Below, piece by piece: positions 29,194 to 29,843 of a DNA stretch of 64,000 bases (the first letter of the stretch is position 1; each line of letters begins with the position of its first letter). The DNA lies in the NCBI GenBank assembly GCA_020832905.1, contig JAJHRG010000001.1, forward strand, positions 64,809-128,808. The letters are read 5' to 3'. The DNA comes from Thermoproteota archaeon. GTDB lineage: Archaea; Thermoproteota; Methanomethylicia; Methanomethylicales; Methanomethylicaceae. Position numbers and translations under genes: made by a program. Under the pieces are notes generated by a model that searched no databases, was not told the origin of the DNA, and saw only the letters and a list, made by a program, of their open reading frames with translations.

Positions 29194-29233
29194 TCGGGAA
29201 AAATAACCGGTATTACCGGTTATTTTTCCCGAG
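29194..29233 (+). repeat. 40-nt perfect palindrome (AT-rich hairpin) inside 23S domain I
   Basis: CUCGGGAAAAAUAACCGGUAUUACCGGUUAUUUUUCCCGAG. Its centre is GGUAUUACC. Confidence 0.8.
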
Positions 29234-29810
29234 TGGGAACCCCCCGAACGGAAACATCCAAGTAGGGGGAGGAAAAGAAACCAAAAGGGATTCCCTGAGT
29301 AGGGGCGACCGAAAGGGGAACAGCCCAAACCGAATCCCTTTGCGATAAGCAAAGGGAGATGTAGGGTTCGGACACCCCCGTTAAAACCCTTCCTAGGGAA
29401 GCCGAAGTGGCCTGGAAAGGCCCGCCGTAGAGGGTGATAGCCCCGTAGGCGTAACCTAGGGGGGTTTGGGGGTGTTCCAGAGTACCACGCCTTGGTTGTG
29501 GCGTGGGAAGGTGGGAGTTACTAACTCCCAAGGCTAAATACGTCCTGAGTCCGATAGCGAACTAGTACCGTGAGGGAAAGCTGAAAAGAACCCCGAGAGG
29601 GGAGTGAAAAGAGCCTGAAACCAACCGGCTACGTAGTGACGTGGCACGAAAGGGATGATTTCTACCGAAGGAGCCCTCCGAGAGGAGGTAGTACGAGGTA
29701 GAAGGACCGGTGTCACGTCTTCCGTTTTGGAGCACGGCCCAGGGAGTTCACCGGAGTGGCGAGCCTAAGGGGATCAACCCCGTAGGCGTAGGGAAACCGA
29801 CAGCCCGCAT

Positions 29811-29843
29811 CCACATTAAGTGGGTATTACCCACTTAATGTGG
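29811..29843 (+). repeat. 33-nt perfect palindrome (AT-rich hairpin) inside the 23S
   Basis: CCACAUUAAGUGGGUAUUACCCACUUAAUGUGG. Its centre, GGUAUUACC, is the same as that of the hairpin at 29194. Confidence 0.8.

Follow-up and report, generated by a model that had tools for sequence, protein, structure and literature searches.

Perfect palindromic hairpins extend two helix tips of the 23S rRNA in a single lineage of Methanomethylicia

In ribosomal RNA (rRNA) genes, one template-switch event is known to suffice for a new perfect stem to arise (Mönttinen & Löytynoja 2022, PMC8794818). The hairpins attributed to this process in rRNA and microRNA genes are reverse-complement stems that occur in one lineage, contain no G·U pairs and extend existing stems, and the source arm of each is present in the reconstructed ancestor; ordinary rRNA helices comprise only 2–10 consecutive pairs (PMC8794818). 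A recognised site of micro-expansion in archaeal 23S rRNA is expansion segment 9 (ES9), which lies among helices 29–31 with helix 30 as its base and measures 20–30 nt in non-Asgard archaea and up to 103 nt in Lokiarchaeota (Penev et al. 2020, PMC7594248). Bacterial 23S genes contain intervening sequences (IVSs) at helices 9, 25 and 45, as in Campylobacter and Coxiella; these are stem-loops of ~90–430 nt and atypical composition that replace the helix tip, occur sporadically among relatives and are excised by RNase III, leaving a fragmented 23S (PMC2801512, PMC4990558). Archaeal rRNA genes harbour lineage-variable hairpin introns of <50 nt, which are defined by a bulge-helix-bulge motif (Jay & Inskeep 2015, PMC4496867), and the GC clusters of yeast mitochondria are short palindromic inserts of atypical composition, tolerated in structural RNA genes, that form multi-copy families with shared sequence (PMC4478555). 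Here we describe two long, perfect palindromes in the 23S rRNA gene of a Thermoproteota archaeon (family Methanomethylicaceae), located in a stretch of 64,000 nt (assembly GCA_020832905.1, contig JAJHRG010000001.1, positions 64,809 to 128,808), hereafter the window. We consider it reasonably probable that both hairpins are micro-expansion segments of the 23S rRNA, young and confined to this species, that were made by a replication template switch or inverted duplication.

The hairpins, and the regions of the 23S rRNA gene that contain them, occupy the following positions in the window:

29193 to 29233, plus strand: hairpin 1, a perfect 41-nt palindrome with 20-bp arms and a central T.
29810 to 29844, plus strand: hairpin 2, a perfect 35-nt palindrome with 17-bp arms and a central T.
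29209 to 29217, plus strand: the shared centre GGTATTACC in hairpin 1.
29823 to 29831, plus strand: the shared centre GGTATTACC in hairpin 2.
29038 to 32122, plus strand: the 23S rRNA gene that hosts both hairpins, full length (Rfam LSU_rRNA_archaea, 2902 bits).
29170 to 29190: helix H9, CCATGGGTTAATAGCCCATGG, the neighbour of H10.
29803 to 29851, plus strand: the whole H30/micro-ES9 element, in which a basal GCCC/GGGC stem leads through a conserved 3x3 internal loop, GCA/GAG, to hairpin 2.

Hairpin 1 has the sequence CTCGGGAAAAATAACCGGTA-T-TACCGGTTATTTTTCCCGAG and hairpin 2, with 17-nt arms, the sequence TCCACATTAAGTGGGTA-T-TACCCACTTAATGTGGA; arm complementarity is 100% in both. Folded as RNA, hairpin 1 forms a 19-bp stem closed by an AUU triloop (−30.3 kcal/mol, z = −8.1), and hairpin 2 a 16-bp stem with an identical triloop (−25.1 kcal/mol, z = −7.2). 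A preliminary description of this DNA had reported perfect stems of exactly these lengths; the coordinates it gave are correct for the 33-nt core of hairpin 2 (29811–29843), but its start for hairpin 1, 29194, is one base short of the true position, 29193. The pairs are Watson-Crick throughout, with no G·U pair and no mismatch, and even the loop bases are self-complementary around a 1-nt centre. The G+C content of hairpin 1 (44%) and hairpin 2 (40%) contrasts with ~59–61% for the host rRNA, in agreement with the earlier view of them as AT-rich islands in a G+C-rich 23S. They are the two longest perfect palindromes in the 64 kb, the runner-up having a 13-bp arm that is nearly pure A+T. The longest perfect palindrome arm in 79 other archaeal 23S segments (~176 kb) is 12 bp, compared with 20 and 17 bp here, which supports the view in the preliminary description that these structures do not look like ordinary expansion-segment drift. 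A scan for terminators and promoters raised no flag at either hairpin. These data confirm that the palindromes are real and statistically extreme.

Hairpin 1 constitutes the whole of 23S helix H10. In the Rfam archaeal large-subunit alignment its insert is located in the loop of a small hairpin directly 5' of the CCCCCC...GGGGG helix (H11), and we take the identity of H10 from the order of helices in the 5' domain of the Escherichia coli molecule, presumably H7, H9, H10, H11. Hairpin 2 is at the tip of helix H30, the ES9 site, where it appears in the alignment as 26 extra nt in the terminal loop (model positions ~735–745). The helix that bears it is in two parts, GCCC-GCA-stem...stem-GAG-GGGC, and the complete element is 49 nt in the window versus 29 nt in the closest relatives. 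Both inserts emerge from the terminal loops of helices with conserved bases, leaving the core intact, and their flanks are aligned with high posterior probability; the folds show that they extend the ancestral hairpins coaxially. The secondary-structure position, raised in the preliminary description as a point to be checked, is given by alignments and folds as the tips of H10 and H30. Like micro-ES9, hairpin 2 grows from H30, the ES9 attachment site, and leaves the common core untouched (PMC7594248). At 49 nt the H30 element of the window is intermediate between those of the non-Asgard archaea and the largest of the Lokiarchaeota. The published ES9s, however, are older, imperfect and often branched, whereas the insert described here is species-level, very recent and a perfect DNA palindrome. 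H10 has no mention in the ES9 study (PMC7594248).

To place the hairpins in a phylogenetic context, syntenic loci of relatives were gathered via homologues of TiaS, and a gapped DNA pattern across H9–H10 was run on metagenome and genome collections; the combined set comprises 80 distinct Thermoproteota 23S 5' regions. The nearest group, five contigs (L001, L002, L028, L038 and L043) with 95% identity over the first kilobase of the 23S, has CTCC-GTAA-GGAG as H10 and CCACA-TTA-TGTGG as the H30 tip. In the next group (L006 and L056, ~90% 23S identity) H10 is TTCC-GTAA-GGAA and the H30 tip CC(G/A)CTC-TATT-GAG(C/T)GG. Identities across the whole operon are 0.94 between the window and L001, 0.90 between the window and L006 and 0.91 between L001 and L006, which makes the window sister to the L001 group. 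As relatives at both 95% and 90% identity carry the short forms, the two palindromes are derived insertions, with a net gain over the ancestral short hairpins of 29 nt for hairpin 1 and 20 nt for hairpin 2. When the window is aligned with L001 and L006, the two hairpins are the sole window-specific insertions of at least 4 nt within the mature 23S. Both hairpins therefore represent a derived state on one branch, in keeping with the lineage-specific helix-tip insertions proposed in the preliminary description. Among the 80 23S genes, the more distant Thermoproteota display H10 lengths of 13–42 nt and H30 tips of 13 to ~80 nt (for example, L017 and L022), and this wide variation identifies both tips as ordinary expansion hot spots. 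The window's own form of H10 was absent from the pattern scans of the metagenome and genome collections. The preliminary description had set its view against that of ordinary expansion segments whose shared 9-mer has no wider occurrence, and on this point the evidence falls halfway: the tips are length-variable in distant Thermoproteota, but the 9-mer is absent elsewhere save for the antisense of the 16S 530 loop and one coding site.

It is exceedingly improbable that the palindromes are artefacts of assembly or sequencing. The material consists of metagenome assemblies only, and several from the same species break inside the rRNA operon: the contig of L007, a strain 99.66% identical to that of the window, breaks inside the 23S, and four other same-species contigs end at the 16S. 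A look-up via a spurious open reading frame spanning hairpin 1 returned no match. Against an artefact, the inserts contain new sequence that occurs nowhere else and are flanked on both sides by collinear 23S, and the window 23S otherwise scores as well as those of its relatives. In addition, a second assembly record, contig k141_3966 of ENA ERZ27247216 (239 kb; possibly from the same sample), contains an identical rRNA operon with both hairpins; it differs from the window by a single mismatch in 10.8 kb, at 34207, which is outside the operon.

The structure of the hairpins argues for an origin at the level of DNA. A replication template switch or fold-back would generate the second arm by copying the first in exact reverse complement, and copying of this kind would account for perfect Watson-Crick palindromes that have self-complementary centres and neither G·U pairs nor mismatches. 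Palindromy so far beyond that of ordinary rRNA helices needs a DNA-level event rather than slow drift, and self-complementary loop bases around a 1-nt centre would not be a product of selection on the RNA. The composition of the inserts is explained in similar terms. The window as a whole is ~26% G+C and the rRNA operon ~60%, and the new sequence is A+T-rich because it mirrors the 26% G+C mutational background and not the selected, G+C-rich rRNA core. One insert would lengthen H10 by ~15 bp and the other H30, at the ES9 site, by ~10 bp. Most likely the inserts are then transcribed and remain in the mature 23S, where the solvent-exposed tips would tolerate them as near-neutral extensions. For hairpin 2 there is a hint of the event itself: when the 5' arm, CCACATTAAGTGGGTA, is set against the ancestral hairpin together with the 3' flank of the latter, CCACATTATGTGGAGA, 13 of 16 positions agree, suggesting an inverted duplication of the entire old hairpin. 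In being confined to one lineage, in lacking G·U pairs and in extending existing stems of an rRNA gene, the window hairpins resemble the catalogued template-switch cases (PMC8794818), and we infer a template-switch mechanism.

The analogy is incomplete, and several observations weigh against template switching as a sufficient account. In contrast to the published cases, in which the source arm is found in the ancestor, most of both arms here are without an identifiable source; stems of 17–20 bp are long for rRNA, and two separate hairpins share a centre. Only 7 of 20 positions in the arms of hairpin 1 agree with the ancestral flanks, the inner 17–35 nt of the two hairpins have no source in the ancestral flanks, and one template switch from an L001-like ancestor cannot write either hairpin. 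Each hairpin would require two or more steps, or else an intermediate that has not been seen. A donor search, in which both 5' arms plus centre were compared with both strands of the window by ungapped local alignment with a shuffled-query control, found no donor in the 64 kb, as the best matches were within the shuffled-query range. The highest-scoring matches were a 13-mer (47112) and, in the 16S–23S spacer at 28887–28903, a 17-mer with two mismatches; this spacer segment is an old conserved element. Identical 9-nt centres would also be unexpected if the switches were independent, the probability of this by chance being ~0.001 to 0.01. Finally, hairpin 1 shares its 5' sequence CTCGGGAAA and its 3' CCGAGT with a long form of H10 found in distant Thermoproteota (see below), a likeness that a purely de novo origin leaves unexplained, and the 42 nt of H10 in the window is the exact length of the long form in L017, L035 and L046.

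The shared centre merits closer consideration. As noted in the preliminary description, the identical 9-mer GGTATTACC is present in both hairpins, and it occurs four times in the 64-kb window compared with 0.26 expected. The other two copies are at 27665–27673, as the antisense of the universal 16S 530-loop sequence GGTAATACC, and at 33717–33725, where it is non-palindromic and in a coding region. Because the hairpins are palindromic, the 9-mer is worth only ~5 independent bases (four arm positions plus the centre), and with five independent positions the chance probability of a shared centre is ~0.001. As an empirical control, H10 and H30 sequences were paired across lineages; 13 of 1260 such pairs (~1%) shared a string of 9 nt or more, in most cases a G+C-rich word. 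Outside the 9-mer the arms are unrelated, with 5 of the 8 bases that adjoin the centre identical. The 7-mer GTATTAC has 23 copies in this genome versus 7 expected from dinucleotide shuffles; it was rejected as a special genomic word, since it falls only in the top 9% of 7-mers of the same composition. L041 was likewise rejected as a second lineage with a string shared between H10 and H30, as its 11-mer proved to be a G+C-rich word of common occurrence, found in different lineages as well. Read as its reverse complement, the centre GGUAUUACC is identical to the 16S 530-loop sequence GGUAAUACC (27665–27673), which is 1.5–2.2 kb upstream. The match is in the orientation that template switching would produce and extends for only 9–10 nt (10 nt for hairpin 1), and this complementarity is probably a coincidence. 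A related observation is that H9 in some Desulfurococcales (L044, L047, L072 and L087) is an 11-bp perfect palindrome, GCCGGAGGGTA-A-TACCCTCCGGC, whose centre GGGTAATACCC differs from the reverse complement of the hairpin 2 tip (GGGTATTACCC) in the centre base alone. Overall the shared centre is notable but not compelling, and in part unexplained.

Among the alternatives, a possible though doubtful one is that hairpin 1 is a long-form H10, either retained or recombined in, whose 3' strand was then overwritten by a small template switch that turned an internal loop into Watson-Crick pairs. The long form, CUCGG-GAAA-(variable stem-loop)-GAGUA-CCGAG, is found in many Thermoproteota, including Culexmicrobium, Thermofilaceae and Desulfurococcaceae (loci L014, L015, L017, L026, L029, L030, L041, L052, L071, L076, L084, L085 and L088). 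Its GAAA presumably pairs with GAGUA in what appears to be a loop-E (AGUA/GAA) motif of the sarcin-ricin type. Hairpin 1 keeps the long-form 5' strand and length but not the AGUA strand, which is replaced by a perfect complement. Besides the shared ends and length mentioned above, the T at 29234 is common to the long forms and not to the sister lineages. A change of GAGTA to TTTC would be one small event, of the kind catalogued for template switching (PMC8794818). However, the short form YTCC-GTAA-GGAR is found in each of the two clades closest to the window (95% and 90% identity), and the short H10 is on this basis most parsimoniously ancestral to the window lineage. The inner stems of the long forms observed are all G+C-rich, while that of the window is A+T-rich, and neither hairpin 2 nor the shared centre is explained. 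Of the two ways to account for the resemblance, a long-form H10 that was then symmetrised or convergence, the phylogeny favours convergence. That two independent inserts have an identical 9-nt centre, a degree of sharing that is rare in the controls, could also be taken to mean that the common tip GG-UAUUA-CC is a selected RNA motif, displayed by the extension of two helices and serving to dock a protein, a modification enzyme or an RNA. Among RNAs, the 16S 530 loop is one candidate, as its sequence and that of the tip are exact complements. We regard this as unlikely. The motif is absent from all relatives, indicating that the ribosome does not need it; palindromy reduces the 9-mer to its few independent bases, seven of the nine are buried in the stem, leaving a 3-nt loop, and the hairpins have no K-turn (kink-turn), loop-E or receptor features. 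The perfect DNA palindromy and the lack of G·U pairs point to a mutational and not a selected origin, and the core GTATTAC, as described above, is common in this genome. Both H10 and H30, moreover, face the solvent on the 50S subunit, a long way from the decoding centre of the 30S, which counts against a docking site. The shared centre would be explained directly if a targeted process seeded GGTA-T-TACC-centred palindromes into hairpin loops of the ribosomal DNA, which may involve reverse-complement copying of the upstream 530-loop 9-mer or a sequence-specific nuclease or turn-around site. Such seeding, which we hold to be decidedly unlikely, would mean that the growth of rRNA helices can be directed in a manner not described before.

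It is very unlikely that a small palindromic mobile element, of the type of miniature inverted-repeat transposable elements, Rickettsia palindromic elements or mitochondrial GC clusters, gave rise to the inserts as copies or as footprints, or that they were seeded by a sequence-specific nuclease or transposase. Rickettsia palindromic elements are multi-copy mobile palindromes that are tolerated inside genes. In addition to sharing their centre, the window inserts have cores that resemble each other loosely, on the pattern TAA-(S-rich)-TATTA-(S-rich)-TTA. The two arose in one lineage, and relatives have IS605-type TnpB genes nearby. A link to IS200/IS605 elements, which have a TTAC target, was considered and rejected as the TnpB genes of the relatives have no homologue in the window. 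The small mobile element put forward in the preliminary description is not supported: the inserts have only the 9-mer centre in common, the arms beyond it being unrelated. No further copies of the hairpins and no donor were found in 83 kb of this genome (the 64-kb window plus 19 kb extra), in the related loci or in viral contigs, where the hairpin 1 arm gave three non-palindromic chance matches and the hairpin 2 arm none. This differs from the multi-copy families of GC clusters (PMC4478555). There is no target-site duplication or consistent target; no direct repeats flank hairpin 1, and the TTA/TAA beside the hairpin 2 core is inverted and part of the palindrome. The 13 kb of non-rRNA flanking sequence that aligns with L001 (86% identical) contains no palindromic insertions. 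Two specific RNA sites suggested earlier are likewise not supported. An L7Ae/K-turn site, which has a 3-nt bulge and then tandem sheared G·A pairs, finds no match in hairpins in which all pairs are Watson-Crick, with no bulge and no G·A pairs. The GNRA tetraloop receptor (11-nt motif) is a CCUAAG...UAUGG internal loop, and neither CCUAAG nor UAUGG is present in either hairpin. Removal of the hairpins from the transcript, whether by cleavage with a double-strand-specific RNase as in bacterial IVSs, giving a fragmented 23S, or by splicing as very small archaeal hairpin introns, is most unlikely. Long perfect double-stranded RNA at helix tips that varies between close relatives has the look of a bacterial IVS (PMC2801512, PMC4990558), archaeal 16S genes hold hairpin introns of <50 nt (PMC4496867), and the same operon has an insert in its 16S that reads as a bulge-helix-bulge intron. 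Nevertheless, when the motif is required as two 3-nt bulges on opposite strands with a 4-bp helix between them at the insert boundaries, it is absent from both 23S hairpins. It cannot be drawn at either: no interruption occurs in the stems, and neither the GCG/TGG that flanks hairpin 1 nor the symmetric GCA/GAG loop beside hairpin 2 forms a 4-bp helix between staggered 3-nt bulges. The inserts, at 20–29 nt, are archaeal, far smaller than the known IVSs and predicted to be retained, and no RNase III gene was seen in the window, to which the search was confined. Taken together, the lack of copies or donor, target-site duplication, bulge-helix-bulge and G·A pairs argues against a mobile element, an intron and a K-turn or L7Ae site alike.

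Probable introns occur at other positions in these operons. In the 16S gene a 186-nt, A+T-rich insert (27685–27870), which serves as a positive control for the motif, directly follows the 530 loop; its position, E. coli locus 548, is an established site of archaeal 16S introns. It has a 15-bp perfect inner stem and a 4-bp CGCG/CGCG helix beside a 3-nt AGA bulge, with AGU opposite. With AGU taken as the second bulge, this can be read as a bulge-helix-bulge intron; in the minimum-energy fold, however, AGU appears as two 1-nt bulges. The insert is shared by L001 and L002, with a diverged interior, and L006 has a 22-nt mini-hairpin intron at this location. In the 23S genes of L001 and L002 there is an insertion of 805 nt (L001 ~4802–5606), presumably an intron, at the site equivalent to window 31133/31134, AGTAACTCTGACTCT^CTTAAGGTAGCC; the window and L006 are without it, whereas the inserts found at the equivalent site in L056 and L008 resemble it in their 3' end.

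Other palindromes indicate that the same style of growth recurs in this group. Near the 3' end of the 23S, a perfect 10-bp palindrome, TCCACTCCCA-TT-TGGGAGTGGA (31993–32014), is shared with L001 and 6 nt shorter in L006. A stem of the RNase P RNA, GTGAAGAG-TTAT-CTCTTCAC (32392–32411), is perfected in the window, with two more pairs than in L001. L026 has a 33-nt lineage-specific insertion, AGGTGGCAGGAGGCGCCTCCTGCCACTGCGGAT, at a site corresponding to ~29431 of the window in an otherwise invariant stretch of the 23S; it holds a 24-nt perfect palindrome without a spacer and appears to be another birth of a palindromic helix.

The remaining features of the operon and its surroundings are as follows:

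27175 to 28858: 16S rRNA, a member of the rRNA operon.
32248 to 32552: RNase P RNA, an operon member.
34742 to 36043: the TiaS gene, with best matches in metagenome-assembled genomes of Methanomethylicia (Verstraetearchaeota).

In the window and every relative examined (L001 6717–7017, L004 1962–2260, L006 7093–7390), the RNase P RNA gene follows the 23S at a distance of ~70–125 nt and has the same orientation, which suggests that the gene belongs to the rRNA operon of this clade or is closely linked with it. Elsewhere in the window a tRNA match on the minus strand (3678–3813) covers 136 nt, implying a long intron of ~60 nt. In view of the TiaS matches, the host is an A+T-rich member of the Methanomethylicia, presumably a thermophilic one.

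The hairpins reveal no new system but a known kind of rRNA helix growth. If they are, as we favour, recent products of template switching or inverted duplication, they would be rRNA expansion segments caught at birth, one of them at the ES9 site, which is greatly enlarged in Lokiarchaeota and present in eukaryotes, with sister species that keep the short form. They would also provide a clean natural example of template switching supplying ready-folded stems for the growth of rRNA, and would show that new rRNA material carries the A+T bias of the genome before selection reshapes it.

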